Source of the DNA: Myxococcota bacterium | Lineage (GTDB): Bacteria > Myxococcota_A > Polyangia > Nannocystales > Nannocystaceae | DNA length: 64,000 nt | Assembly: GCA_039028615.1 (NCBI GenBank) | Contig: JBCCHT010000014.1 | Coordinates: 128,001 to 192,000 of the forward strand | Direction: 5' to 3' | In this document: piece by piece, positions 41,781-61,209 of the stretch | How positions within the stretch are numbered: the first letter of the stretch is position 1 | How the letters are laid out: each line of letters starts with the position of its first letter | Translations under genes and position numbers: made by a program | Notes under the pieces: model-generated | What the model was told of the DNA's origin: nothing | Seen by the model: the letters and a program-made list of their open reading frames with translations, nothing else | Databases searched by the model: none

Positions 41781-43394
41781 TTAGAGCTGGCAGACGCCGG
41801 TCTCGAAGTCGACCGTGGCGGCGAAGCTGGAGTTTTGCCACATCGGCGCCCGGTAGGAGGCCTCGAACTGGCTCGCGGCCGCCTCGTCCTCGACCACGTA
41901 GCCGAAGTCCTGCAGCGTGGCGGGGTACAGGTTCTTGGAGCCGATGTAGAAGGCCTCGCCGTCGACGGAGACGACCTTGGCGTGGTTGGCGGGCGCGTGC
42001 CCGTTGTCCCAGGCGTCCACGCCGTCTTCGATGCGAATGGGGGCGAGCTGAAGGCTGCCGCAGACGAGGGTCTCGGCCTCGAAGGTGCTCACCCCAGCGC
42101 GCTCGGCCACCTTGCGCACCAAGATGTCGCTGACCTCGGTCAGGCTCCCGGCGTTCGAGTAGGGCATGTTGAGCGAGCCCTGCTTGGCGCCGGGCGAGGT
42201 CAGGATGATCTGCACCGCGACGCCGTCGATGAGCTTGTCGGCGAGCACGTCGAAGAGGCGGGCGTCGTACTTCGAGTTGGCGAAAGGCGGCGCACAGGGA
42301 GCGATGAGGTCCTGCTGCGACAGGAACACGCTGCGCTCGGCGCTGGCCACCAGCGCACGCAGGCCCTCTTCCTCGGGGTTGGCGACGGAGTAGCCGGTGT
42401 CATCGTTGACGTAGTCGTCGAACCAGCCCGAGCACGCGGCGTGGTCGTCGTCGGCCGCGGGCAGGCCCGGGCCGTAGCCGCCGGGCACGTCCATGCCGAA
42501 GCCCAGGCCGCCCAGCGCCATCACCTGCGCCGTGCCGACGGGCGCGACCTCGGTGGTGGAGTGCGTGCGGGGGCAAGCGCTGCCCATGGCGTCGCTGCGC
42601 GCGAGGTCGACGTAGAAGGTCGACTGCCACCACGAGTCGCCGTTGTCACAGGCGAAGCCCCACAGCTCGTCCGCGAACAGGTGGGCCGAGTCGGCGGCGG
42701 GACCCGCCAGGCGCATCGTCATGTCGTTGACCGGGTCGGTCACCTCGCCGTAGGAGGCGGTCCACAGGTTGTGCCCACCCACGATGGCGGTGCGAGAGTC
42801 GACGGCGATGATCTTGGAGTGGTTCCAGGAGTACAGCCAGCTGGTCTCCACGCCGGCCACGATGAAGCGCGCGTCGTTGCCCGCCGCACCGAGGTCGGCG
42901 ACCAGGCGGTCGTGGTAGTCGAACGCGCTCTCCGACACCGGGCTGGTGAAGTTGCCCAGGCCCGGCGGCGTGCCGCCCAGGATGCGGATGGTCAGATCGG
43001 GGTTCTCGTCCAGCGCGGTGAGCAGACCGTCGACGATGGCCTCTTGGAAGATGCCGTCCGGGTAGGTCACCAGCGTGGTGATGTCGACCCACTCCTGTGC
43101 GGACGCGATGTCCTCGTAGATGGTGTCGGCGAGGACCTGAGCGCCCAGGGGGTCACAGCCCGCGTCGCCCCAGCAGTCGGGGCTCTGGAGCAGCCACTCG
43201 TCACCCTCGACGCCGTAGCCGGAGATGTCGTTGCCGACGCTCCGACCCCAGACCGTGCCCTCCGAACCCGGAGCGAGATCGCGAAGGGCATCTTCGACGC
43301 GATCGATATGGGGCGTGGCCGCCTCGGCGGGAAGAGAGACGAGAACGCTGGCCGCAGTGGCGAGCACGAACGAAAACTGTCGCAGAGAAGTCAT
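41781..43394 (-). CDS. Secreted phospholipase D
   Basis: Signal peptide; two HxKxxxxD motifs (NHSKIIAVD, NHAKVVSVD); GSKNLYP.LQDFG; WLLQSPDCWGD. Confidence 0.9.
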   Translation of the reverse strand: MTSLRQFSFVLATAASVLVSLPAEAATPHIDRVEDALRDLAPGSEGTVWGRSVGNDISGYGVEGDEWLLQSPDCWGDAGCDPLGAQVLADTIYEDIASAQEWVDITTLVTYPDGIFQEAIVDGLLTALDENPDLTIRILGGTPPGLGNFTSPVSESAFDYHDRLVADLGAAGNDARFIVAGVETSWLYSWNHSKIIAVDSRTAIVGGHNLWTASYGEVTDPVNDMTMRLAGPAADSAHLFADELWGFACDNGDSWWQSTFYVDLARSDAMGSACPRTHSTTEVAPVGTAQVMALGGLGFGMDVPGGYGPGLPAADDDHAACSGWFDDYVNDDTGYSVANPEEEGLRALVASAERSVFLSQQDLIAPCAPPFANSKYDARLFDVLADKLIDGVAVQIILTSPGAKQGSLNMPYSNAGSLTEVSDILVRKVAERAGVSTFEAETLVCGSLQLAPIRIEDGVDAWDNGHAPANHAKVVSVDGEAFYIGSKNLYPATLQDFGYVVEDEAAASQFEASYRAPMWQNSSFAATVDFETGVCQL

Positions 43395-43961
43395 GGCTCG
43401 TTTGCCGGTCAGATGACACGGGGATCCGAGGGCGGCAACGCAGTGCCAACCCGCTCCGATCGCGAGGTCCTCGATCGCGCCATCGAAGCTCGGGCCCGCT
43501 GTTGGGGCGGTCACCAAACGCGGCGGTCTCGAGTGTCCGAGCCCCCCGAAGACCGCCGCGACGGTCCTCGATTTCCGTGGCCACCCGCACCAAACCGGTG
43601 GACCCGGTGGCGGCCCTCACCAAATCGCGGCCGAGGGACGCAAAACGCCACAGTCGATCGAAGTCGAGACCACCCACACAGGCACACAATGTAGTCTTTT
43701 TGCATTTCAATATCTTGACGGCGCAACGCGTAGTGAGCGCCGAATGTTCTACCGTACGGGTGTACGGTTACCGGCGACCACGCGGGAGAAGCGCGGAGTT
43801 GTTGTCGGCCGACGGCGATGCCGCGTCGGTCCGCGCCATGGTGAAGCTTCGACCCCACCGGAGCCACCGCGCCGCGACCGACTCGCCCTTCCTTTACTTC
43901 GGCTTTGCGTTGGCTCGCGAGCCCAGTGACATCGCCCCGCTATGCTCTGAATCGAGGTTCG

Positions 43962-44441: not shown

Positions 44442-44507
44442 GCCCGCCTCCCCTACCCCATCGCGGCCCGCCTGCCGTCGCCGCGCCGATGTGGTATGGG
44501 GCGGCCG

Positions 44508-45380
44508 ATGCTCCGATTGATCCTCACGCACCCCGGCGGCGCGCACAAAGACGACTTGTTGGCGGTCTGCGTCCTGATCGCCAAGTACGGCGCTCCCGTC
44601 GTGCGGCGGGTGCCCACCGACGAGGAGCTCGTGGATCCGGCGGTCGCCATCGTCGACATCGGCGGTGTGCACGACCCGGAGAAGATGGACTTCGACCACC
44701 ATCACTTCCCCCGGGAGCACGCGCCCACCTGCGCGCTGAGCCTGGTGCTGCAGCACCTGGGCATCTACGAAGATGCCCTCAAGTTCTGCGACTGGCTCGA
44801 GGTGGCCGAATGGTTCGACTCGCGCGGGCCCAAGAAGACGGCGGAGTGGCTCGGGGTGCCGCGCCGCGCCGTCTCCCAGCTCAACTCACCCATCGACGTC
44901 ACCCTGCTGCGCCGCTTCGCCGCGAACAGCGAGCTGAAGCCGGGGGACACGCTGTACGAGTACATGCGCTTCGTGGGTGAGGACCTGCTCGAGTACCTCC
45001 GCGTGGTCCGGGAGCGCCTCGACTTCACCGCCTCGGTCGTCCAGCGCTGGACCATCCAGCAGGGCGACGACACCATCGAGGCGGTGTTCCTGCCCCGCAC
45101 CGACCCCATCGTCGACGAGCCGAGCACCGCGGTGGCCAACTACATCCGCGCCGAGGGGCTCGAGGAGGTCGTGGCGGCCACCGTCTATCCCGATCGGCGG
45201 GGCAGCGGCTACGGCATCGGTCGCTACGAGGACCACCCCATGCTCGACTTCTCGCGGGTCGGCGAGGAGCCCGACGTGCACTTCGCCCACAACAGCGGCT
45301 TCGTGTGCAAGACCTCGGCGACCGAGCCCGAGCGGCTGCGCGAGCTCATCGCGGGCGCCTGGGGCCAAGCCAAGGGCTGA
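44508..45380 (+). CDS. MYG1 family protein (DHH-type)
   Basis: THPGGAHKDD, DIGGVHDP...FDHH, FAHNSGF. Confidence 0.85.
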   Translation: MLRLILTHPGGAHKDDLLAVCVLIAKYGAPVVRRVPTDEELVDPAVAIVDIGGVHDPEKMDFDHHHFPREHAPTCALSLVLQHLGIYEDALKFCDWLEVAEWFDSRGPKKTAEWLGVPRRAVSQLNSPIDVTLLRRFAANSELKPGDTLYEYMRFVGEDLLEYLRVVRERLDFTASVVQRWTIQQGDDTIEAVFLPRTDPIVDEPSTAVANYIRAEGLEEVVAATVYPDRRGSGYGIGRYEDHPMLDFSRVGEEPDVHFAHNSGFVCKTSATEPERLRELIAGAWGQAKG

Positions 45381-47217: not shown

Positions 47218-50200
47218 CTACTCCCACAGCATGAAGGTGCCGATGGTCTCCGGGTCGTGCACCCGCAGCAGGTGAAACCCGACGCCCGCGAGTCCGTCGA
47301 AGAGGCCGACCTGGAGCGCTTCGCGGGGCAAGCCGATGAGGAGCGAGTAGCCGCCATGGGCCCGAGCCTGCTCGACGACCGCGGCGGTCCACGCCTGGAC
47401 CTCGTCACCGAGTTCGGTGCGACCGGTCGCGCGCCCCATGGTCAGCAGGGCCTCCAGGCGCCCGAAGACACCGCAGCAGACGTTGCCTTCACCGACCGCC
47501 CCGTGCATGCGAGTGGTGGCCACCGCGTGCTCGAGGTCCTCGCGGATCAAGGGCGAGCCCACGCTGTCGAGCATGGCCGCCCGCGACATGCCGATGCCCG
47601 GAGCGCCGTAGCACCAGCTCGAGACGGAGCGGAAGCGGCCGTGTTCGTCGGCTTCCCGCAGGTCGTACCAGTTGCGCACGCGAGGATCGAAGGCCGTGCG
47701 CTCGTAGGCGACCGCCGCCTCGACCACCTGCCGATAGCGCGGGTCGGGATCCAGCTCGGAGAGCCGGGCGAAGGCCAAGGCGAAGCCCGAGGCACCATGA
47801 GACAGGCCGGCCAGCGGCCGCTCTTCGCCCGGCATCCAGCGCGAGCCCTCCGCTCCCGGCTCGCCCAACAGTCGAGGCAACAGGTGCTCGGCACACGCAC
47901 GAGCGAGCTCCAGGGCTCGGGCCGACCCGGTGATGGCGTGCATCCGCAGCAGCCCCAGGATGGCGCCCGCGTTGCCCTTGGTCGCGTCGAGTTCTTCGTC
48001 GTCCGCGTACAGGGTGGCCAGCCGCTCCATGACCACCTCCGCTCGCGCCAGCAAGCTCGGGTCGTCGAGGTACTCGGCCGCCTTGGCCAGGGTGTAGATG
48101 ACCGAGCCGTCGCCCGTCAGCCCGCCCGTGCTCCAGGGCAAGATGCCCTCTTCGAAGCCGCCGTCGATCTCCGCGTAGACGTGGGCCAAGGTCGCGTGGC
48201 AGCACGTCTTCCAGCGCTCCTTGCCGGTCACGCGGTGCAGCGCGGCGAAGAACAGGCCCACGCCCAGGCTGCCGCCGTACAGCAGCGTCGAGCACGGGCC
48301 GAGTCGGAACGCATCGCTGCCGAACAGGTGCTCGAAGGAGATCCAGGTCATGCTGCCGTCGTCGGCCTTGATTGCCGCGCGGTCGAGCTGGTCGCCGATG
48401 CGCTCGGCCTCGGCCACGAAGTCGACGCTGGCGGGGTCGACCTCAAGCGGAGCCTCGGATGCCTGGTGGTCGTGCCCATGCGTCACCCGACCGTTGCGCG
48501 ACTGGATGGAGGCTTGGATGTAGCTCAGCTGGAGCGCCAGATCCTCCTCGCCGAGCGCCGCGAGTCGCTCCCGGACCCCGTCCAGGGGCGCTGCTCGCAA
48601 GAACTCGGACGAGACGAGCTCGCCGGTACCGGTCTGCAGCTCGGCTCGCTCGGTGGGCGCGTAGAAGGCCGGGATGTCGAGACGCGTGAGCGCGGCATGC
48701 TCGATGCGCACGCTGTCCCAGTACGGCGGGCGATCGTCGTGGTGCGGCGGTCGACCGAGCAAGTCGAAGTGAATGCCCCGGTCGACGCCGTCGCGCATGA
48801 GGTCGGGATGGCAGCCGTTCTCGAGCAGGTCGCTATAAAGCCGCGTCGGTCGCAGCACCACGCGTACCCGCTGACCCGCGAAGCCCTGCAGCGGACCCGC
48901 GGGCGCATCGATGCGAGCGCGGGCCTCCAGCAGGTAGCGATACATGCGCTCGAAGCCGCGGGCGAACGCGTCCTGGTGGTCCAAGACCGAGGCACTCTCA
49001 CCGTCGAGCTGCGGCGCGTGGCCCTGTCCACCGAGCGGCAGGCGCGTGGGCGCGAGGTCGAAGTCGTCGGTGTTGACCCCGTGCCAGCCCATGAACTCGC
49101 GATCGGTGACCTGGCCCTCCGCCGCGCCCGCCCCGGAGATGTCCATGCTCTTGCCGTCGATGCCCATCGTCCACTCGGGCAGCAGGCCCGGGCGCTGCAC
49201 CGAGTGCACGGTCTGCTCGCGCGCGAGCTGCTGGGCGCCCGTCCCCATGGGGCTGGGGCGCACGGCAAAGCGCGGGTGCATGACCGTCTCCGCGTCGATC
49301 AGGACCGGGTCGGCCCCGGCCGCGATCACGTTCTCGAAGTGACAGTCGGTGGCCTCGAAGGTGTGCAAGATGGCCAGCATCGCGCCCAGGCGCTCGTAGA
49401 AGGCGACGATCTCGGCTCGAGCGGCGCAGGGGGCCGCTTCGACGAATTCGACCCACCCGTAGTCCGGCCGCGAGCAGATGGACAGCGGTCGGTGCTGGTA
49501 GGGAGCGCCATCGGCCGCGAACCACCGCAGCAGGTCGAACCACGCCACCTCGATGCCGAGCGGGCGCGGCTTGTAGACGACCTTGGTGCCCTCCCCCATC
49601 GTCACGATGAGCACCGAGCGCCCGCCGTTGTGACGATCGGAGATGCCGCCATCGAGGCGAGCGACTCGGGTCTCGTCCCGACCGTCCGCGAAGGCCTCCG
49701 TGAGCGCGCTCCAGTCCGCGTCGAGCCGTTGCACGAACTCGGCGGTGGCCTCGACCCAGTGCAGCACCGCGGTGCCCATGGCGCGAGCCAAGGCGCTGTA
49801 CTCGAGGAAGAAGCTCTGCATGCCGTCGGCACACAGCCGGGCGATGAAGCGATCGTAGTGGCGACGGCTGGTCTCTCCGCGTGCCTGGCGAGCCATGCGT
49901 TCGAGCGGCGACTCGCTGCGCTGACACTCGAGCCGCAGCTCGAGCCGCAGGGATGCAGTGGACAGCCACCCCAGGCTCCGCAGCAGACGGAGGCGCAGGT
50001 CGGCCTTCACCGCGTCGTCGAGCCGCGCCAGCTCGGCGCCCGCGGCCGCCTGGAGGCGGTCGTAGCCCTCATCGACGAAGTGGGCCAAAAGCTCCTGAAA
50101 CGGGGCCGGCAGCCCCGACATGAAGTAGTCACGCTCCGTCGCCGGACCCCGGCCCGCGCGGCTGGCCACGGTCTCGATGAGGCTCGCCCACCCGGGCAGC

Positions 50201-50436: not shown

Positions 50437-51534
50437 CTAGACCGTGGGGGCGCGATGGGCCCAGTGAAGGTGAAAACCGAAGTAGGCCTTGACGAGCGGG
50501 GGGCGTCGCCCGTGCAGGACCAGCTTGAAGTGGTTGATGCGTCGCTCGAGCGACGGCTGGGGGAGACCGAATCGACCGAGTCCGCGGAATCGGCCGGGCC
50601 AGGTGGGCGCGCTCTCGTCCGTCCGACCGCAGAAGGCTCGCAGCGCGGCGGCCTCGTCGGCGGGGCACGTCCCGGTGGCGACGAAGTGTTCGAGCAAGGC
50701 CAGGCTGCGAGCGTCGGGGCCCTGGCCTTCGCCGCGCAGCGGGCTGGTCTCGAGCCCGAGTCGAGGCCCGACACCCGCGGCGATGTCGATGCTGAGCGCC
50801 ACGTCGTCGCTGCGCTCCATCAACGCGTGCAGGTGCGAGGCCACCGACGACGGCTCGCCGGGCCACCCGATGCGCTGGAGGTAGGCCAGGGCCGTCGCGG
50901 GCTCGAAGCCTCGGACGACCACCCGGGCCCCACGATCGGGGCGAGAGAGCATCGCGCCGACCTGCAGCACGTGCTGCCCGTCCTGGAGCGCACGAAAGCA
51001 CCGATCTAGCGTCCGCCGGGTAGTGGGGGGCAAGGCGCCGTCGGCCAGGCACTGCAGCCCCATCGTGGCGGATGCGGGCGCGCCCTGGCGAAAGTCGTGG
51101 GCGTCGGTCTGCCACCGCGCGAGCCCGAGGAACACCGAAGGCACGGCGGCGCGGTGGGGCTGCCTGCGACCGACGTCGAACTCGAGCCACAGCTCGTGGA
51201 TGCGATCGTAGCGGTGAGCCTCGACCTGCTGCGGGCTGTTGAGGTCACCGACCAGAGTCGCGACGCGGTCCCAGGCTCGACGCTCCGCGGAGGCCTCGGC
51301 GCGGTCGGGGACCGTCAGCTCCTCGGGCGTCGCCCGGATCGCGAAGTCGGCCCGTCCCCTCCCCTCGCCCAGCACCACCTCGAACCCGGCCGTCGACACG
51401 GCGGGCAGGCAGCAGGCGACCCGACGCATCGCCGCCCGACTCTCCTCGCTCACCAACCGGGTCGGGAGCGCGGGGTCGATCGCATCGAGCAGGTCGCACA
51501 ACGCGATGGCGGGTCGGGGCAAGGGGGCGTTCAC
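50437..51534 (-). CDS. Unassigned RiPP tailoring enzyme (365 aa), possibly ABBA-fold prenyltransferase-like
   Basis: Lies between precursor and lanM; motifs GFEVVL..ADF, WLEFD, PSVFLG, QVGAMLSR, RRINHFKL, VKAYF. Function is inference. Confidence 0.7.
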   Translation of the reverse strand: MNAPLPRPAIALCDLLDAIDPALPTRLVSEESRAAMRRVACCLPAVSTAGFEVVLGEGRGRADFAIRATPEELTVPDRAEASAERRAWDRVATLVGDLNSPQQVEAHRYDRIHELWLEFDVGRRQPHRAAVPSVFLGLARWQTDAHDFRQGAPASATMGLQCLADGALPPTTRRTLDRCFRALQDGQHVLQVGAMLSRPDRGARVVVRGFEPATALAYLQRIGWPGEPSSVASHLHALMERSDDVALSIDIAAGVGPRLGLETSPLRGEGQGPDARSLALLEHFVATGTCPADEAAALRAFCGRTDESAPTWPGRFRGLGRFGLPQPSLERRINHFKLVLHGRRPPLVKAYFGFHLHWAHRAPTV

Positions 51535-51551: not shown

Positions 51552-51600
51552 AAAAATCGAAGAGACCCGGGTCCCGCCAGCAAGGGCGAAGACCCGGGTC
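51552..51600 (-). terminator. Hairpin/attenuator after the precursor gene
   Basis: Minus strand GACCCGGGTCTTCGCC-CTTGCT-GGCGGGACCCGGGTC followed by TCTTCGATTTTT. Confidence 0.65.
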
Positions 51601-51609
51601 GAGGGGGCA

Positions 51610-52203
51610 CTAGCCGCCGAGGGGGCCGGTGGGCGTGGGGGGCTCGGGCGTGCCCGGGCCGCCGGGGCAGTTCGGCACGTCGTTGGTGGTGCAGAACGAA
51701 GTGCAGGTGCTGTGACCGCACTGGGTGCACGAGGAGCCGCCCTCGGTGGGATCGGGGCCGCCCCAGCCCGCCGCGCGGACCTCGTCGACGAGCACGCCGG
51801 CCTGGAACATCGAGGGCAGGACGATGTGGATCTCGTTGTCGCTGTCGGCCAGGACGTTGATCTCGACGTTGGCCGGGAACCCGATGCCGAACGCGGCCTC
51901 GAGGCTGCCGCGAGGATCGGCCAGCAGCTGCGCGCGATAGTCATCGTCCGTCATGGCGCGACTGACCACCTGGGTGGTGATGTCCTGCTCCTGGTCGGTG
52001 AGGACCATGGTGCGGGGGATCAACACGTAGACGGACTCGTCGTTCTCCTCGAGGACCCGCACGCTGCAGGTGTCGGAGAAGGTGACGCCGAAGTCTCGCT
52101 GAAGCACCACCTTGGGCTGGTTGACCAGCTCTTGGCGGAAGGCAGGATCCTTCGCCGCTTGGGCGAGCAACGCCGAGACGGGGATGGGGCTGTGGGTCTG
52201 CAT
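51610..52203 (-). CDS. NHLP-family lanthipeptide precursor with two tandem NHLP leader domains and a Cys/Ser/Thr-rich core
   Basis: AAKDPAFRQELVNQPK...YVLIP (aa ~12-63) and AMTDDDYRAQLLADPR...HIVLP (aa ~79-130); core SSCTQCGHSTCTSFCTTNDVPNC. Confidence 0.9.
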   Translation of the reverse strand: MQTHSPIPVSALLAQAAKDPAFRQELVNQPKVVLQRDFGVTFSDTCSVRVLEENDESVYVLIPRTMVLTDQEQDITTQVVSRAMTDDDYRAQLLADPRGSLEAAFGIGFPANVEINVLADSDNEIHIVLPSMFQAGVLVDEVRAAGWGGPDPTEGGSSCTQCGHSTCTSFCTTNDVPNCPGGPGTPEPPTPTGPLGG

Positions 52204-52674: not shown

Positions 52675-54282
52675 ATGAGCGACCATGGACTGGGATGGTG
52701 CGAGGGTCCGACCCCTCCTGCCTTCACCGCCGAGACCATCACCGCCGCGGTGCATGATTTCCGGCGCGAGACCTTCGTCGTCCGTCATCCGCACGATGGT
52801 TCGATCGGTGTTGCCCAGGGGGGTGGACTGGGCCCGGGGGGCGGCACCGCGCGGACCTGGCCCGTGCTGGGCATGCTGGCGCCGCTTTTTCCCGAGTGGC
52901 TGGGTGACCGCAGCTTCGCCGAGATCCACGGCGTTCGGTTCCCCTACGTCAGCGGGGCCATGGCCAACGGCATCGCCACCACCGAGCTGGTGACGGCGAT
53001 GGGCCGGGCCGGCTTCCTCGGGTTCTTCGGCGCGGCCGGTCTGGGCTTTTCTCGCGTCGAGCAGGCCGTGGCCACCCTGCGCCAGCAGCTGGGCGACCAG
53101 GCGCCGTGGGGCTGCAACCTCATTCACTCGCCGCAAGAGCCTCGCCTCGAAGAGGCGGTGGCGCAGCTGTACCTCGAGCAAGGCGTGCGGCGCGTCTCGG
53201 CCGCGGCCTATATGCGGCTGACCCCGGCCATCGTCCGCTACGCGGCGAGCGGCCTGAGCACGGGGCCGCAGGGGCAGATCCTGCGGCGCAATGCGGTGTT
53301 CGCCAAGATTTCCCGCCCCGAGACGGCGCGGCGCTTCATGGAACCGGCTCCTGCCGCCATGCTCGACGCGCTCGTCCAAAAGGGGCAACTCACCGCCGAC
53401 GAGGCCGCGCTCGCCCGCCACGTGCCGGTCGCGGAGGACATCACCGTCGAGTCGGACTCGGGCGGCCACACCGACAACCGGCCGCTCGGGGCCCTATTGC
53501 CGCTCATCATCTCCGAGCGCGACACCATCGCCGCCGCCCGCGGCTACACCCGCCCCATCCGCGTGGGTGCGGCGGGAGGCATGGGCGCCCCCCGCTCGGT
53601 CGCGGCCGCGTTCGCGATGGGAGCGGCCTACGTGCTCACCGGCTCCGTCAACCAGGCCTGCGTGGAGTCCGGGCTCGATGCCAGCGGACGCCAGATGCTG
53701 GCCGAGGCCGGGGTCGCCGACGTGATGATGGCCCCTGCCGCCGACATGTTCGAGCTCGGCGTGGACGTGCAGGTCCTGCGTCGCGGCACCATGTTCGCGG
53801 TCCGGGCTCGACAGCTGTACTCGCTGTATCGCGCCCACCAAAGCTGGGACGAGATCGCCGCGGACGAGCGCAGCAAGGTCGAAGACCAGCTGCTGCGCTG
53901 CTCCTTCGCCGACGCCTGGGACTCCACGCGCCGCTTCTGGGAAGAGCGCGACCCCACGCAGATCGAGCGCGCCGACGCCGATCCCCGCCACCGCATGGCG
54001 CTGGTCTTCCGCTCCTATCTCGGCCGCTCGAGCCGCTGGGCCATCGACGGCCAGCTCGATCGCCGCGCCGACTATCAGATCTGGTGTGGCCCCGCGATGG
54101 GTGCCTTCAACGACTGGGTCCGCGACAGCTTCCTCGCCGCCCCGCCGAAGCGCACCGTGGTGCAGGTCGCCCGCAACCTCATGGAAGGCGCGGCCGTGGT
54201 CACCCGCGCGCAACAACTTCGCTCCTACGGGGTCGCCGTGCCCCCGACCGCCTTCGACTTCCGCCCCCGTCCCTTGGGTTAG
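52675..54282 (+). CDS. pfaD: PUFA synthase enoyl reductase (PfaD / myxobacterial Pfa1)
   Basis: GAMANGI, NLIHSP, AKISRPE, ESDSGGHTDNR, MAPAADMFELG, DYQIWCGPAMGAFN. Confidence 0.95.
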   Translation: MSDHGLGWCEGPTPPAFTAETITAAVHDFRRETFVVRHPHDGSIGVAQGGGLGPGGGTARTWPVLGMLAPLFPEWLGDRSFAEIHGVRFPYVSGAMANGIATTELVTAMGRAGFLGFFGAAGLGFSRVEQAVATLRQQLGDQAPWGCNLIHSPQEPRLEEAVAQLYLEQGVRRVSAAAYMRLTPAIVRYAASGLSTGPQGQILRRNAVFAKISRPETARRFMEPAPAAMLDALVQKGQLTADEAALARHVPVAEDITVESDSGGHTDNRPLGALLPLIISERDTIAAARGYTRPIRVGAAGGMGAPRSVAAAFAMGAAYVLTGSVNQACVESGLDASGRQMLAEAGVADVMMAPAADMFELGVDVQVLRRGTMFAVRARQLYSLYRAHQSWDEIAADERSKVEDQLLRCSFADAWDSTRRFWEERDPTQIERADADPRHRMALVFRSYLGRSSRWAIDGQLDRRADYQIWCGPAMGAFNDWVRDSFLAAPPKRTVVQVARNLMEGAAVVTRAQQLRSYGVAVPPTAFDFRPRPLG

Positions 54283-54285
54283 GTC

Positions 54286-57200
54286 ATGACCGATTCCAAA
54301 CGACCTCCTTTGGCCATCGTCGGTGCTTCGGCACTGTTCCCCGGTTCCCCGGATGCCACCGGGTTCTGGCACGACATCCTGCGCGGCCAGGACCTGCTCA
54401 CCGAGATCCCGAAGAGTCACTGGCTCATCGAGGACTACTACGACCCCGACCCCAAGGCGCGCGACAAGACCTATGCCCGTCGCGGTGGGTTCATCGACCC
54501 GGTGGACTTCGATGCCGTCACCTGGGGCGTGCCGCCGGCCATCATCAAGGCCACGGACACCTCGCAGCTGCTGGGGCTCATCGTCGCCGAGCAGGTGCTG
54601 CGCGACGCCGCGCGCGAGCGCTTCGAGACCATCGACCGCTCGCGCATGTCGGTGATCTTGGGGGTGACCTCGGCCCAGGAGCTGCTCGCCGCGATGGTCA
54701 GCCGGCTGCAGCGCCCCGTATGGGTGAAGTCGCTGCGCGAGCAGGGCCTGCCCGAAGACGAGGTCCAGGCCGCCTGCGACCGCATCGCCGACCACTACGT
54801 CGAGTGGGAAGAGAGCAGCTTCCCCGGCTTGCTCGGCAACGTGGTGGCGGGTCGCATCGCCAACCGGCTCGATCTCGGCGGCACCAACTGCGTGACCGAT
54901 GCCGCCTGCGCCTCGACCTTCTCCGCGCTGTCGATGGCCGCGCAGGAGCTCTACCTCGGGGACTCTGATCTCGTGATCACCGGAGGGGTCGACACCCTCA
55001 ACGAGATCTTCATGTTCATGTGTTTCAGCAAGACCCCGGCGCTGTCGCTGTCGGGGGACTGCCGGCCCTTCTCCGACCAAGCCGACGGCACGATGCTCGG
55101 CGAGGGTCTGGGCATGGTGGCCCTGCGTCGCCTCGAAGACGCCGAGCGCGACGGAGACCGCATCTACGCCGTGATTCGGGGCATCGGCGCGTCGTCGGAC
55201 GGTCGCAGCAAGAGCGTGTACGCGCCCGTGTCCGCCGGTCAGGCCAAGGCCCTGTCGCGCGCCTACGAGCACGCGGGCTACGAGCCGAGCACGGTCGAGC
55301 TGGTCGAGGCCCACGGCACGGGCACCAAGGCCGGCGATGCGGCCGAGCTGGGCGGGCTGCGGCTCGTGTTCGACACCGAGGGCACCGATCGCCGTCAGTG
55401 GTGTGGCCTCGGCTCGGTGAAGTCGCAGATCGGGCACACCAAGGCAGCCGCGGGCGCGGCGGGCCTGTTCAAGGCGGTGATGGCCCTGCACCACAAGGTG
55501 CTGCCGCCCACGATCAAGGTGGACACGCCCAACCCCAAGCTCTCGCTCGAGGACTCGGCGTTTTACGTCAACACCCAGGCCCGCCCGTGGGTCCGCAGCA
55601 GCGACCACCCGCGCCGCGCCAGCGTGAGCGCCTTCGGCTTCGGCGGATCCAACTTCCACATCACGCTCGAGGAGTACGACGGGCCCGCCCCGCGAGCCGA
55701 GCGACTGCGAACCTGGCCGAGCGAGCTGGTCGTGCTGTGCGGCGACGATGTCGTGGCGCAGGCCCGGCAGTGGGCCGAGCGCGCCGACGAGACCGAGCTT
55801 CTGCCCTTCGCCGCCTGGACGACCCAGCGCAGCTACGACGCCACCGCCAAGCGACGGCTGGCGGTCGTCGCCTCCACGGGCGACGAGCTGCGCACCCGGC
55901 TGCTCGCCGCCGCCAAGCGGATCGAGGCCGCGCCCGACGATGGGTTCGAACTGCCCGATGGCACCCGCTACGGCGTCGGAGAAGTGAGCGGCGGCGTGGC
56001 CCTGCTCTTCCCGGGGCAAGGCAGCCAATACGTCGGCATGGGGGCGGACCTGGCCATGGGTCTGGACCGAGCCCGCGCCGCGTGGGACCGCGTCGCCGAG
56101 CACCCCATGGACGGGGCGCGGCTCGACCACCAGGTGTTTCCCATCCCCCGCTTCAACGATGCCGATCGCGAGGCGGACACCCAGCGACTGCGGGCGACGC
56201 AGTGGGCCCAGCCGGCCATCGGCTGCACCAGCGCCTCGATGCTCGCCGTCGTGAAGAGCCTCGGCATCGAGGCCCAGGCGGTCGCCGGGCACAGCTTCGG
56301 TGAGATCACCGCCCTGCACGCCGCGGGTGCGCTGGATGCCGACGCCCTGGTCGCGGTGGCCCGTCGCCGCGGCGAGCTGATGGCCGATGCCAAGGAGCCC
56401 GGAGCGATGGTCGCCGTCTCGGCCCCCGTCGACGACGTGCGCCCGATTCTGCAAGCCCACCCCGACGTGGTGCTGGCCAATCACAACGCACCGCGCCAGG
56501 CCGTCCTCAGCGGACCCGTCGACGCGATCGAGCGCGCCGAAGCGGCGATCAAAGCCGCGGGCTTGCGGGCGACCCAGCTCCCCGTGTCCTCCGCGTTTCA
56601 CTCCCCGGTCGTGGCCGGCTGCGTGGCGCCCTTTGGCGAGTTCTTGGCCGGCATCGAGTTCGAGCGGCCGGGGCTGCCCGTGTACTCGGCCGAGTCCGCG
56701 GCGCCCTACGAGCCCGACGCGGCCGCGATCCGAGCCCGCCTCGGCCGTCAGATCGCCGAGCCCGTGCGCTTCGTGGACACCATCGAGGCCATGGCCGCAT
56801 CGGGTGCACACACCTTCATCGAGGTCGGCCCCGGCTCGGTCCTCAGCGGCTTGGTCGGTCGCATCCTGAAGGGGCGCCCGCACGCCGCGGTGTCCATCGA
56901 TCGCAAGGGTCGCAACGGCCTCGAGTCTCTGAACCTCGCACTGGCCCAGCTCGTCGCGCTCGGCGTGCCGATGCAGCTGGCGCCGCTGTGGGATGGCCAT
57001 CGCGAGCCCCTCGATCCGGCATCGCGGCCCAAGCCCAAGCTGGCCATCCCTCTCACCGGTACCAACTACGGAAAGCTCTACCCGCCGCCGGGTGGCGCTG
57101 CCGATCTTCCCGCTCCCAATCCCCCGCGTGCTGCCATGTCTCGAGAAGCGAATCGTCCATCGAACCCCGCCCCGAGCTCCACGCCCACCATCGTGCCGGC

Positions 57201-60200
57201 CGAGACGCCGACGCCCGCCGCGGCTCCCCCTGCGGCCGCCCTGCCCGCGCCCACGCCCATGGTGGCGGCCCCCGTCGCGCCTGCGTCCGCTCCGTTCGTG
57301 GCGGCCCCCGCCCCCGCGGCGCCCCTGGTGACCCCCGCGGCACAGGCCCCCGCGGGATGGCTCGCGGCCTGGCAGCAGGCGCAAGAGCAGACCGCTCAGA
57401 CCCACGCGCTCTTTCAGCAGACCATGGCGCAGTCCCACGCGGCGTTCCTGCGCACGGCGGAGGCGAGCCTGATGGGATTGGCCGCGATGGCGGGTGCTCC
57501 GGCGACGGCCGGGATGAACGCGTCCGTCGCCGTGCAGCCGGCCGTGCCCGCCCCCGCTCCGATGCCCGCCGCGGCTCCGCCTGCATGGGCGCCCGCTCCC
57601 GCTGCGCCGGCACCGATGGCGGCTCCGCCTGCGATGCCGGTCGCCCCCCCGAGCCCGGTTGCCGCCGCCCCGGCGCCCACTCCCGTGGCTCCTGCACCCG
57701 CCGTGCAAGCGGCTCCGCCCGTCGCCGCGGCAGCGAAGCCCGCGATCGACCTCGAAGCGGTGATGCTCGAGGTGGTCTCCGACAAGACCGGCTATCCGCA
57801 GGACATGCTCGAGCTGTCCATGGACATGGAGGCCCAGCTCGGCATCGACTCCATCAAGCGCGTCGAGATCCTCGCCGCCGTCCAGGAGCGCGCCCCGGGC
57901 ATGCCCGAGGTCGATGCCTCCCACATGTCCAGCCTCACCACCCTCGGCCAGATCGTCGACTACATGCGTGACCTGATGGGTGAGGCGGCGCCCGCTGCCG
58001 CCCCGGCCAGCAGCGCGGCCCCGGCCAGCCCCTCCGTCGATCTGGAGCGCCTCATGCTCGAGGTGGTCGCCGACAAGACCGGCTATCCGCAGGACATGCT
58101 CGAGCTGTCCATGGACATGGAGGCCCAGCTCGGCATCGACTCCATCAAGCGCGTCGAGATCCTCGCCGCCGTGCAGGAGCGCGCCCCGGGCATGCCCGAG
58201 GTCGACGCCTCCCACATGTCCAGCCTCACCACCCTCGGGCAGATCGTCGACTACATGCGTGGTTTGCTCGGTGCGGCGGCCCCCGCTGCGGCGCCCACCA
58301 ACGCGCCCGCGGCCAGCCCCGCCGTCGACCTCGAGCGCCTGATGCTCGAGGTGGTCGCCGACAAGACCGGCTACCCCCAGGACATGCTCGAGCTGTCCAT
58401 GGACATGGAAGCGCAGCTCGGCATCGACTCCATCAAGCGCGTCGAGATCCTCGCCGCCGTGCAGGAGCAGGCCCCGGGCATGCCCGAGGTCGATGCCTCC
58501 CACATGTCGAGCCTCACCACCCTGGGGCAGATCGTCGACTACATGCGCGGCCTGCTGGGCAGCACCGCCCAAGCCGCTGCCCCGGCCGACGTGGCTGCAG
58601 CGGCTCCCGCGGTGGACCTCGAGGCGCTCATGCTCGAAGTGGTCGCCGACAAGACCGGCTATCCGCAGGACATGCTCGAGCTGTCCATGGACATGGAAGC
58701 TCAGCTGGGCATCGACTCCATCAAGCGCGTCGAGATCCTCGCTGCCGTCCAGGAACGTGCCCCGGGCATGCCCGAGGTCGATGCCTCCCACATGTCCAGC
58801 CTCGCCACGCTGGGGCAGATCGTCGACTACATGCGCGGCCTGCTCGGCGGCGCCCCGCAGCCGATTCCCACCGCTGGCACCGCCCCCTCCGAAGGCTCGA
58901 GCCCGGACATCGAAGGTCCCCCGCTCGGTCGCTTCGCCCTCGAGCTCCGAGACGCGCCCGCGGTCGGACTGGCGCAGCCGGGCCTGTTCGGAGACGACGG
59001 CGTCGTAGTCAGCTCCGATGGTGGACCCGTCGCCGCCGCGCTGGTGGCCGAGCTGACGCGTCGTGGCGTGCCCGCACGCGAGGCCGAGGTCACCGACACC
59101 ACCACCGCCGCCATCTTCCTCGGCGGCCTCCGGGCGGTGCAGACGGCCGATGACGCGGTCGCCGTGCAGCGCGAGGCCTTCACCACCGCTCGCACGCTGG
59201 CCCCGCGCCTGAGCACCACGGGCGGCCTGTGGGTCACCGTGCAGGACACCGGGGGCGGCTTTGGCCTCGAGCCCTGCCCGCCTGTGCGCGCGTACCTGGG
59301 GGGCATCCCGGCCCTGGTCAAGACGGCCCGCCAAGAGTGGCCCCACGCTAGCCTCAAGTCGATCGACATCGACGTCGGAGGCCGCAGTGCGGAGCAGATC
59401 GCCAACGCCCTCGCCGACGAGTTGCTCGGCGGTGGTGGTGAGATCGAGGTCGCGCTGTCGACCGACGGCACTCGTCGCACGCTGCGGTCCTTCGCGGCCG
59501 AGGTGGAGCCCGCCGCGTCGGTGGTGGGGCCACAGGACGTCATCGTGGTCTCCGGCGGCGCCCGAGGGGTGACCTCCGCCTGTGTCCGCGAGTGGGCGGC
59601 CGACAGCGGTGCGCGCTTCGTGCTGCTGGGCCGGACCCCGCTCACCGACGAGCCCGCCGGGCTCCAGGGCGACGAAGACGACGCCGCGCTCAAGCGAGTG
59701 CTGCTCCAGCAGGCCCGCGACCGCGGCGAGCGACCCTCCCCCGTCGAGCTGTCGCGCCAGACCTCGGCCATCCTCTCCGGCCGCGAGATCCGAGCCACGC
59801 TGTCCGCCCTACAGGGCATCGGGGTGAAGGCGCGCTACGAGGCGGTCGACGTCACCAATGCCGACGCCCTGGCCTCCACGCTGGCCGAGGTACGTACGCA
59901 GTGGGGCCCGATCACGGGGCTGGTGCACGGCGCGGGCGTCCTCGCCGACAAGCCCATCGCCGCGCTCGACGACGCCTCGTTCAACCGGGTCTTCGACACC
60001 AAGGTCACCGGCCTCCGAGCGCTGCTGCACGCCACCCGCGACGACTCGCTCAAGGTGCTGGCGATGTTCAGCTCCGTCTCCGCCCGCTGCGGCAACAACG
60101 GCCAGAGCGCGTACGCGATGGCCAACGAGGTGCTCAACAAGGTCGCCCAGGCCGAGGCACGCGCCCGGGGTCCGCAGGTCCGCGTCCGCTCGCTGGGCTG

Positions 60201-61209
60201 GGGCCCGTGGGAGGGCGGCATGGTCAACCCGGCCCTACGCAAGCGCTTCGCCGAGCTGGGCGTCCCGATGATCCCGCTGGACGTCGGGGCCCGCATGCTG
60301 GCCGACGAGCTGCGAGCCCCGCACGCCGAGTCGGTAGAGCTGGTGCTGGGCGGTGAGCCCCGAGCCGAGGCTCTTTTGGTCAAGGGCAGCGAAGATCGAC
60401 GGCTCGAGCTGGAGGTCCACGTCGGCCAAGGCACGCATGGCTATCTCGCCGACCACTCCATCGGTGGTGCCGCGGTCGTCCCCGTCGTGCTCGCCATGGA
60501 GTGGATGACCCGCCTCGCCCGCGCCTTCCGGCCCGACCTCGAGCTGCGCTCCATCGACAAGCTTCGGGTGCTGCGGGGCATCAAGCTGTCCGGCTTCGAC
60601 GGCGGCGGCGACCGCTTCACCTTGCGCGCCCGCACGCTCCGCAACGGCCACGGGGCGATCCTCGAGCTCGAGGTCCTCGGCTCGGATGGAACGCCGCACT
60701 ACCGCTCCGAGGCCACGATGGCCGCCAAGGAGGACCCGGCGCCGCCCTCGTCGTCGCCCTCTTCGCCCCGGCTCGAAGCGTGGAGCGGCAGCTCCATCTA
60801 CGGCGACGTGCTCTTCCACGGCGACAAGTTCCAGGTCATCGAGTCGCTCGAGGGCGTGGGCGCTGATGGCATCGCCGGCACGCTCAAGGGCGTGGACCGA
60901 GCGGGCTGGACCTGGGAGAGCTGGCAGACCGACGCCGCCGCGCACGACGGTGGCCTCCAGCTCGCCGTGCTGTGGGCACGTCACCAGCTGGGCCGCGCCA
61001 TGCTGCCCATGGGAATCGAAGCGCTGAAGCTCTCGGGCCAACCGGTGGTCGAAGGGCCCCTGCGCTGCTTTGCCCGATGCCGCGAAACCGACGCGTCGCG
61101 AGTGACGGCCGACCTGGCCTTCGTCGACGCCGAGGGCCGCGTGATCAGTGAGCTGCGGGGGGCCGAGCTGGTCGCCCGTCCCGACATGCCGTCGATCGCC
61201 CGGGGCTGA
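54286..61209 (+). CDS. pfaA: PUFA synthase KS-MAT-4xACP-KR-DH (PfaA / Pfa2)
   Basis: DAACAS, EAHGTGT, GHTKAAAG; GHSFGE and AFHS; four LGIDSIKRVE ACPs; SGGARGVT KR; DH-like YLADH. Confidence 0.95.
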   Translation: MTDSKRPPLAIVGASALFPGSPDATGFWHDILRGQDLLTEIPKSHWLIEDYYDPDPKARDKTYARRGGFIDPVDFDAVTWGVPPAIIKATDTSQLLGLIVAEQVLRDAARERFETIDRSRMSVILGVTSAQELLAAMVSRLQRPVWVKSLREQGLPEDEVQAACDRIADHYVEWEESSFPGLLGNVVAGRIANRLDLGGTNCVTDAACASTFSALSMAAQELYLGDSDLVITGGVDTLNEIFMFMCFSKTPALSLSGDCRPFSDQADGTMLGEGLGMVALRRLEDAERDGDRIYAVIRGIGASSDGRSKSVYAPVSAGQAKALSRAYEHAGYEPSTVELVEAHGTGTKAGDAAELGGLRLVFDTEGTDRRQWCGLGSVKSQIGHTKAAAGAAGLFKAVMALHHKVLPPTIKVDTPNPKLSLEDSAFYVNTQARPWVRSSDHPRRASVSAFGFGGSNFHITLEEYDGPAPRAERLRTWPSELVVLCGDDVVAQARQWAERADETELLPFAAWTTQRSYDATAKRRLAVVASTGDELRTRLLAAAKRIEAAPDDGFELPDGTRYGVGEVSGGVALLFPGQGSQYVGMGADLAMGLDRARAAWDRVAEHPMDGARLDHQVFPIPRFNDADREADTQRLRATQWAQPAIGCTSASMLAVVKSLGIEAQAVAGHSFGEITALHAAGALDADALVAVARRRGELMADAKEPGAMVAVSAPVDDVRPILQAHPDVVLANHNAPRQAVLSGPVDAIERAEAAIKAAGLRATQLPVSSAFHSPVVAGCVAPFGEFLAGIEFERPGLPVYSAESAAPYEPDAAAIRARLGRQIAEPVRFVDTIEAMAASGAHTFIEVGPGSVLSGLVGRILKGRPHAAVSIDRKGRNGLESLNLALAQLVALGVPMQLAPLWDGHREPLDPASRPKPKLAIPLTGTNYGKLYPPPGGAADLPAPNPPRAAMSREANRPSNPAPSSTPTIVPAETPTPAAAPPAAALPAPTPMVAAPVAPASAPFVAAPAPAAPLVTPAAQAPAGWLAAWQQAQEQTAQTHALFQQTMAQSHAAFLRTAEASLMGLAAMAGAPATAGMNASVAVQPAVPAPAPMPAAAPPAWAPAPAAPAPMAAPPAMPVAPPSPVAAAPAPTPVAPAPAVQAAPPVAAAAKPAIDLEAVMLEVVSDKTGYPQDMLELSMDMEAQLGIDSIKRVEILAAVQERAPGMPEVDASHMSSLTTLGQIVDYMRDLMGEAAPAAAPASSAAPASPSVDLERLMLEVVADKTGYPQDMLELSMDMEAQLGIDSIKRVEILAAVQERAPGMPEVDASHMSSLTTLGQIVDYMRGLLGAAAPAAAPTNAPAASPAVDLERLMLEVVADKTGYPQDMLELSMDMEAQLGIDSIKRVEILAAVQEQAPGMPEVDASHMSSLTTLGQIVDYMRGLLGSTAQAAAPADVAAAAPAVDLEALMLEVVADKTGYPQDMLELSMDMEAQLGIDSIKRVEILAAVQERAPGMPEVDASHMSSLATLGQIVDYMRGLLGGAPQPIPTAGTAPSEGSSPDIEGPPLGRFALELRDAPAVGLAQPGLFGDDGVVVSSDGGPVAAALVAELTRRGVPAREAEVTDTTTAAIFLGGLRAVQTADDAVAVQREAFTTARTLAPRLSTTGGLWVTVQDTGGGFGLEPCPPVRAYLGGIPALVKTARQEWPHASLKSIDIDVGGRSAEQIANALADELLGGGGEIEVALSTDGTRRTLRSFAAEVEPAASVVGPQDVIVVSGGARGVTSACVREWAADSGARFVLLGRTPLTDEPAGLQGDEDDAALKRVLLQQARDRGERPSPVELSRQTSAILSGREIRATLSALQGIGVKARYEAVDVTNADALASTLAEVRTQWGPITGLVHGAGVLADKPIAALDDASFNRVFDTKVTGLRALLHATRDDSLKVLAMFSSVSARCGNNGQSAYAMANEVLNKVAQAEARARGPQVRVRSLGWGPWEGGMVNPALRKRFAELGVPMIPLDVGARMLADELRAPHAESVELVLGGEPRAEALLVKGSEDRRLELEVHVGQGTHGYLADHSIGGAAVVPVVLAMEWMTRLARAFRPDLELRSIDKLRVLRGIKLSGFDGGGDRFTLRARTLRNGHGAILELEVLGSDGTPHYRSEATMAAKEDPAPPSSSPSSPRLEAWSGSSIYGDVLFHGDKFQVIESLEGVGADGIAGTLKGVDRAGWTWESWQTDAAAHDGGLQLAVLWARHQLGRAMLPMGIEALKLSGQPVVEGPLRCFARCRETDASRVTADLAFVDAEGRVISELRGAELVARPDMPSIARG
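57745..58848 (+). repeat. Four near-identical ACP-coding repeats (~290-bp period)
   Basis: Repeated GACAAGACCGGCTA.CC.CAGGACATGCTCGAGCTGTCCATGGACATGGA...CAGATCGTCGACTACATGCG. Confidence 0.9.

Follow-up and report, generated by a model that had tools for sequence, protein, structure and literature searches.

The window, i.e. the whole stretch of 64,000 nucleotides that was analysed, codes for a lanthipeptide precursor in which two NHLP leader units, one behind the other, precede a single core. Its gene stands in a four-gene class II lanthipeptide operon, together with the genes for a probable prenyltransferase (PT), a LanM synthetase and an exporter devoid of a peptidase domain (Table 1). Precursors with a doubled NHLP leader constitute a real, widespread and recurrent variant, apparently undescribed so far, and we regard the doubled leader as a recurrent, overlooked design feature rather than as a new peptide class or the marker of a subclass. 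The explanation that we favour, and hold to be reasonably likely, is that of a class II lanthipeptide operon with probable tryptophan prenylation, in which the duplicated leader constitutes an accessory docking or stabilising module.

Table 1. Features of the operon and of its precursor gene, with positions in the window.
Feature	Position	Strand	Description
Precursor peptide, 197 aa	51610..52203	-	Two NHLP units, short tail, core rich in Cys/Ser/Thr whose end is rich in Pro/Gly
NHLP unit 1, about aa 8-63	52015..52182	-	TIGR03793 stretch, 49.5 bits
NHLP unit 2, about aa 75-130	51814..51981	-	TIGR03793 stretch, 50.6 bits
Leader tail, aa 131-146 (...VLVDEVRAAG)	51766..51813	-	Degenerate version of the usual ELSDEELxxVAGG end
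Putative core from W147, exact start uncertain	51613..51765	-	5 Cys, 13 Ser/Thr
Stem-loop with U-rich tail, between precursor and maturase genes	51553..51600	-	-34.5 kcal/mol, z -3.6
Probable ABBA-fold peptide prenyltransferase, 365 aa	50437..51534	-	Predicted-structure matches, homologs in RiPP clusters
LanM class II lanthipeptide synthetase, 1070 aa	47218..50430	-	CCG-type zinc site; TIGR03897 793.8 bits, cut-off 304
ABC exporter, 609 aa	45385..47214	-	Pfam ABC_tran and ABC_membrane

An earlier note on this DNA had read two leader units at a period of 67 aa and had proposed a scan with TIGR03793, expecting two matches. Two stretches were indeed found (Table 1), the whole precursor scoring 95.8 bits against a cut-off of 50.9, with the match ending at position 63 of the 77 of the profile. 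At the period of 67, 13 of 61 ungapped positions are identical, D19/D86 and P63/P130 among them, and the self-alignment of the precursor scores 80, a value that none of 2000 shuffles attained (22.8 +/- 4.4). The units are 24% identical as protein and 46% as DNA, in a host genome of 70% GC; they are thus as strongly diverged as the note had claimed, and the duplication, far from recent, is old in its own lineage, with both units retained. The resulting leader of about 146 aa departs from the typical single NHLP leader of about 80 aa. A whole-genome search of the 12.3 Mb found no other TIGR03793 gene. The CxxCSC metal-binding motif is absent from the precursor, its segment being occupied by the linker between the units. 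We rejected the possibility of two fused precursors, each with a core of its own, since no core separates the units in the sequence. A single-sequence AlphaFold2 model of the precursor (pLDDT 41.8) was too low in confidence for a fold search.

The composition of the core stands as first described, i.e. 51 aa from W147 with the Cys and Ser/Thr residues listed in Table 1, and its Cys and Ser/Thr content is conserved in the relatives P0003 and P0004. Its start is less firmly placed, as an alternative cleavage after G148-G149 would yield a 48-aa core beginning at P150. The leader ends in VLVDEVRAAGWGG, a degenerate double-glycine motif: G148-G149 have L138 at -12, yet positions -7 and -4 are occupied by R and G, and the relatives P0004, P0005 and P0006 lack the Gly-Gly. 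A145-G146-W147-G148 is invariant in a four-sequence alignment, and W147 is the sole tryptophan of the precursor.

Downstream of the precursor gene, a stem-loop whose stability was matched by one of 200 shuffles also gave a terminator-like match, and is probably a leaky terminator or an mRNA stabiliser. A search for a sigma-70-like promoter found none. The last three genes of the operon, those of the 365-aa protein, LanM and the exporter, are separated by 6 and 3 bases. LanM comprises DUF4135 and LANC_like domains, and its motifs at residues 283, 362, 379, 526, 939 and 985 are those to which we would assign the catalytic roles. An inserted helix at about aa 170-183 (49882-49923) is present in all five NHLP-linked LanMs aligned and in one for which no precursor was detected; the other LanMs lack it or have a shorter one. 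It resembles the helix described for DprM in the available text of PMC12537861, and is presumably its equivalent. LanM of this cluster is therefore intact and of the NHLP-binding type, as judged by its TIGR03897 match, motifs and inserted helix. No C39 peptidase domain (PF03412) was found in the exporter with Pfam; the genome codes for three C39 domains elsewhere. The downstream edge of the operon is marked by a MYG1-like gene (window 44496-45380, forward strand), convergent with the exporter gene, and by a phospholipase D-like gene (41781-43517, reverse strand). On the other side lie divergent pfa-type polyunsaturated fatty acid synthase genes (52675-61209, forward strand), i.e. PfaD and a PfaA with four ACPs.

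The 365-aa protein had no sequence match in Pfam, NCBIfam or the PDB, searches of the PDB and Pfam with an alignment of its family were also blank, and its single-sequence AlphaFold2 model (pLDDT 34.8) was too low in confidence for a fold search. Its ESM Atlas model (pTM 0.85), in contrast, matched clusters of Trp-dimethylallyltransferases (Trp_DMAT) with TM values of 0.61-0.65, and reached TM 0.84 with a squalene-cyclase fusion. From this similarity of predicted structures and of language-model representations, the protein is probably an ABBA peptide prenyltransferase, so that its role as a second maturase, proposed in the earlier note, is plausible. A C-terminal insert carrying W312 and F316 (50587-50601) is a candidate leader-binding element; the two residues stand at i and i+4, the spacing reported for W336/F340 of MppC, to which they may be equivalent. 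MppC inserts F340 into the nucleus of the Nif11 leader of MppE and geranylates a tryptophan solely while the leader is attached (PMC12715784). By analogy with MppC, W147 is a candidate prenyl acceptor, and a tryptophan follows unit 2 in all four precursors of the conserved cassettes described below. The conservation of tryptophan in the 26-sequence 'WGG' alignment A4 is not evidence, as its sequences were hand-picked on the motif. On annotated plasmids, the homologs of the PT lie beside NHLP or Nif11 precursors in all four records; a clear NHLP gene was found near only three of the 23 homolog loci examined, some of them on short contigs, so NHLP precursors are not the only context of the PT family.

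Within the bacterial family, seven of 73 genomes matched the double-leader profile, and four of the 73, from three genera, keep the order double precursor, PT, LanM (G000, G210, G485 and G453, the last with split PT and LanM frames). The other matches comprise two genomes with coreless doubles and one with a single leader beside a LanM dehydratase domain and YcaO. P0003 and P0004, whose contigs agree in length with those of the PTs P0196 and P0197 (54% and 53% identical), probably represent further copies of the cassette. The PT accompanies the double leader in 4/4 cassettes and there carries the C-terminal insert. However, six double-linked PTs fall, with one unlinked row, on one side of a single branch (93/93), so that the co-occurrence of PT and double leader counts once; we consequently rejected it as independent evidence of an association. 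The two coreless double-NHLP proteins (L086:7481-8167, forward strand, and L085:1227-1736, reverse strand) lie immediately after a protein of 1620 aa that contains four LamG domains, with no RiPP enzymes detected nearby, and their NHLP pair may have a non-RiPP role. At L087:7663-10885 (genome G405), a LanM dehydratase domain standing alone (DUF4135) and a YcaO come after a single NHLP gene.

Single-leader counterparts of the cassette also occur. At L057, a single NHLP gene, a PT without the C-terminal insert and a LanM follow each other in the same order; in Nostoc UHCC 0926, three single NHLPs lie beside both a PT homolog and a LanM; and in Azospirillum B510, eight of them accompany a frame that contains a PT and a LanM dehydratase. 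The insert is also found in the PTs of L151 and L152, which lie beside single leaders. As PT homologs and LanM occur beside single leaders, a pair of enzymes does not require a pair of leaders, and the suggestion in the earlier note that each leader recruits a different maturase is, although conceivable, not required.

A word-index search with the precursor retrieved only three relatives. A profile search of 1.84 billion representatives (50%-identity clusters), in contrast, gave 457 matches at E <= 1e-10; among the best 150 of these, an iterated unit HMM identified two units in 144, four in 4 and one in 2, i.e. at least two in 148. This sample of 150 was ranked by a double-leader profile, and accordingly shows the number of doubles, not their share among NHLPs. 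The CT/SLCSC motif of nitrile hydratase was found in none of the top-150 representatives, and a cross-check with TIGR03793 recovered at least two stretches in 40 of 42 hand-picked ones. In a sample of 401 genomes of the phylum, 34 matched; 30 loci were examined, comprising 20 nitrile hydratases, 5 single leaders, 3 leaders of one and a half units and 2 full doubles. A canonical double-glycine end is present in 62 of 149 doubles, and 62 of the 149 have fewer than two Cys after unit 2, so that many doubles are not lanthipeptides. Two doubles from Nostoc in RefSeq are examples without PT or LanM. WP_179076313.1 lies within a TOMM/radical-SAM cluster that includes a C39 transporter, no RiPP enzyme is annotated in the vicinity of WP_179069833.1, and neither of their plasmids gave a PT match. 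The earlier proposal that a double leader defines an undescribed RiPP subclass is not upheld, as doubles are found widely, have arisen repeatedly and independently, and are accompanied by other enzymes or by none. No account of a single core preceded by two NHLP leaders was found in the open-access PMC and bioRxiv literature, within the text available from these sources (PMC12455567, PMC13647313, PMC10027976 and PMC9259500 included).

Multi-unit NHLP leaders, of two to four units, fill at least 148 sequence clusters. Their precursors are 170-400 aa long and would tend to be missed by the size filters of precursor mining. Four units were found in P0007, from a Calothrix MAG and with an Arg-rich core, P0008, P0009 and P0010, the last with a core rich in Tyr and Gly. 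In the leaders L134, L136 and L138, from genomes G078, G183 and G233, a complete unit is joined by a second repeat of reduced length, and the cores are long and rich in Val/Thr.

The doubled leaders do not share one history. Across 147 doubles, the identity of the two units within a protein ranges from 16 to 95% (median 36%), 22 of 119 tree cherries pair both units of one protein, some with weak support, and the nearest neighbour of 191 of 294 units is the same-position unit of another protein. Together, these results support both old, inherited duplications and repeated recent ones, the latter with near-identical units (95% and 90%); a single ancient origin for all doubles is rejected by the unit identities and the tree. 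The alpha subunit of nitrile hydratase (e.g. P0189) likewise consists of two homologous halves, each matching the NHLP unit model, and the double leader is colinear with it over 126 columns (99.15%), the linker replacing the metal-binding segment. Nevertheless, the units of doubles start like the N-terminal half and continue like the C-terminal half, as 32 single NHLPs do. Both units being chimeric in the manner of single NHLPs, the doubles represent a duplicated single NHLP; a direct remnant of the hydratase subunit was rejected, as its units would resemble the N- and C-terminal halves, respectively. In the available text of Haft et al., single NHLPs are characterised by a 63-residue deletion, which would correspond to about one repeat. 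The degree of conservation is the same for unit 1 as for unit 2 (0.322 vs 0.322, 325 pairs), and the hydrophobic core positions of both persist among proteins that are 15-49% identical per unit, and across three genera. This equal conservation argues that neither unit is a relic.

Under our preferred explanation, an ordinary single NHLP domain would have been duplicated in tandem to produce the leader. LanM would insert its single extra helix into the hydrophobic pocket of one unit, probably that adjoining the tail (unit 2), and would dehydrate Ser/Thr residues of the core and close as many as five (methyl)lanthionine rings. Next, the ABBA enzyme would bind the cyclised, leader-bearing peptide and prenylate it, most likely at W147, after which the peptide may be exported with its leader on and cleaved by a protease encoded elsewhere. 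The second unit would be a selected accessory module, providing extra docking surface, avidity or stability. The earlier note had proposed modelling the precursor with LanM and the 365-aa enzyme. A three-chain model (LanM 105-612, PT and leader 6-149) scored 0.44, against 0.01 for the best control, in which LanM was replaced, with a contact agreement of at least 37% and a partner pLDDT of at least 72 across the runs. Of 157 solved complexes, 116 attained the mark, as did 2 of 215 mismatches; both of these mismatches, but only 18 of the solved complexes, did so with a value of 0.60 or under. The model thus lends weak support to binding of the leader and none to the part of the PT: the control that kept PT and leader and replaced LanM scored 0.01, which is not evidence either way. 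That NHLP leaders oligomerise, as also proposed earlier, found no support, the term 'oligomer' being absent from the available text of the NHLP structure literature searched.

A division of labour, with one NHLP pocket for LanM and the other for the PT, would allow both enzymes to be held simultaneously, or the peptide to be handed over without competition. Competition for one pocket is plausible, as DprM and MppC place aromatic side chains in the hydrophobic nucleus of the respective leader (modelling and mutagenesis, in the available text of PMC12537861 and PMC12715784). In the present operon, LanM contains a single helix of this kind, and W312/F316 of the PT show the MppC-like spacing. Furthermore, the units differ by 76% yet are equally conserved, same-position units of different proteins are mostly nearest neighbours, and the PT accompanies the double leader in every cassette of the family, whereas the insert is missing from the single-leader PT of L057. 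Nevertheless, single leaders suffice beside LanM and PT in L057, L151 and L152, the PTs of the latter two having the insert, and one Nif11 leader of MppE serves both MppM and MppC (PMC12715784). Doubles without a PT exist, and the double-linked PTs, confined to one branch, reflect one event rather than a repeated association. We consequently consider a division of labour unlikely. A second unit tolerated as a functionless by-product of slippage would agree with the near-identical recent copies and the partial leaders of one and a half units, but it is highly improbable for this precursor, in which the hydrophobic core positions are kept and both units are equally conserved at only 15-49% identity across three genera.

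A carrier role is decidedly improbable in our estimation. It supposes that the two units pack as one two-repeat domain like that of nitrile hydratase alpha, which stays attached through export and stabilises or shields a lipidated core, the enzymes reading only unit 2. Besides the colinearity with the hydratase subunit, it agrees with Atlas models in which residues 8-141 are aligned in a single block (TM 0.55) and 123-129 residues match nitrile hydratase alpha clusters, with the existence of coreless doubles, with an exporter lacking C39 and with a Gly-Gly that is not conserved. Twin-arginine-like N-terminal extensions (SRRxxL, a hydrophobic stretch and AxA) were observed in five double-NHLP precursors (L036:6264-7022, forward strand; L083:11202-11948, reverse strand; P0105; P0125; P0222), four of which match the Tat model TIGR01409 weakly, at 13-15.7 bits. 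The peptidase-less exporter and these Tat-like relatives hint at export with the leader attached, and a Tat-exported RiPP precursor would be unusual. On the other hand, the Tat scores lie under the cut-off of 16.7, the precursor of the window has no such signal, the genome has three C39 domains elsewhere, a C39 transporter is present at the G210 locus, and the linkers vary widely in length (periods from 59 to over 100 aa), against one fixed packing. Combining both ideas, tandem leaders might act as scaffolds with two sockets, restoring the two-repeat fold of nitrile hydratase alpha, here with one socket for LanM and the other for the PT (or the isoprenoid), the folded lipopeptide being exported whole, by the peptidase-less ABC exporter here and by Tat in relatives. 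This reading is speculative and rather doubtful; were it true, a RiPP would be assembled and shipped on its own folded carrier.

Known systems resemble the operon in part. According to the available text of PMC12537861 and PMC2887384 (TIGR03793), DprE/DprM and OspA/OspM share with it a TIGR03793 leader, an adjacent LanM with a helix in its dehydratase domain, W203/W207 of which are inserted into the NHLP nucleus by DprM (PMC12537861), and a Cys/Thr-rich core. It differs from them in its two leader units, a degenerate leader end without a conserved Gly-Gly, the lack of a C39 transporter in the operon and a 48-51-aa core with five Cys. The nearest precedent for the doubled leader, within the available text of PMC2887384 and PMC4603692, is that of the fused NHLP-Burk (TIGR03795) pairs of Delftia and Acidovorax, likewise with two NHLP-clan modules per polypeptide, which are described there as two fused precursors of a two-peptide TOMM product. 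In contrast, no core lies between the units here, and LanM takes the place of YcaO; membership of NHLP-Burk was rejected on this LanM cluster and on a TIGR03795 score of 33.4, under the cut-off of 41. The precursor is also distinct from nitrile hydratase alpha (TIGR01323, 41.1 bits against a cut-off of 249.85), as it is devoid of CxxCSC. The mpp cluster of Moorena producens similarly combines, in the available text of PMC12715784 and PMC11791876, a LanM with a prenyltransferase, of which the counterpart here is a probable ABBA enzyme, a long structured leader and an available tryptophan. MppE, however, has one Nif11 leader and a 7-aa core as opposed to two NHLP units.

Recent work shows that one hydrophobic pocket of NHLP and Nif11 leaders is used by more than one maturase. 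Two diverged pockets, a LanM and a probable prenyltransferase constitute a small, cloneable system for leader multiplexing and RiPP engineering, and the cluster is a candidate source of a large polycyclic prenylated lanthipeptide. Polycyclic isoprenoid RiPPs are reportedly a subject of work by Chekan/Piel. Among the plasmid-borne PT homologs, that of Azospirillum sp. B510 pAB510a (L152:14203-16077, forward strand), which has no Pfam match, adjoins the eight single-NHLP precursors, and that of a Pseudanabaena galeata plasmid (L153:7995-9788, forward strand) forms, within a Nif11/LanM cluster, part of a fusion with a 2OG-Fe(II) oxygenase, the fusion protein being annotated merely as an oxygenase.
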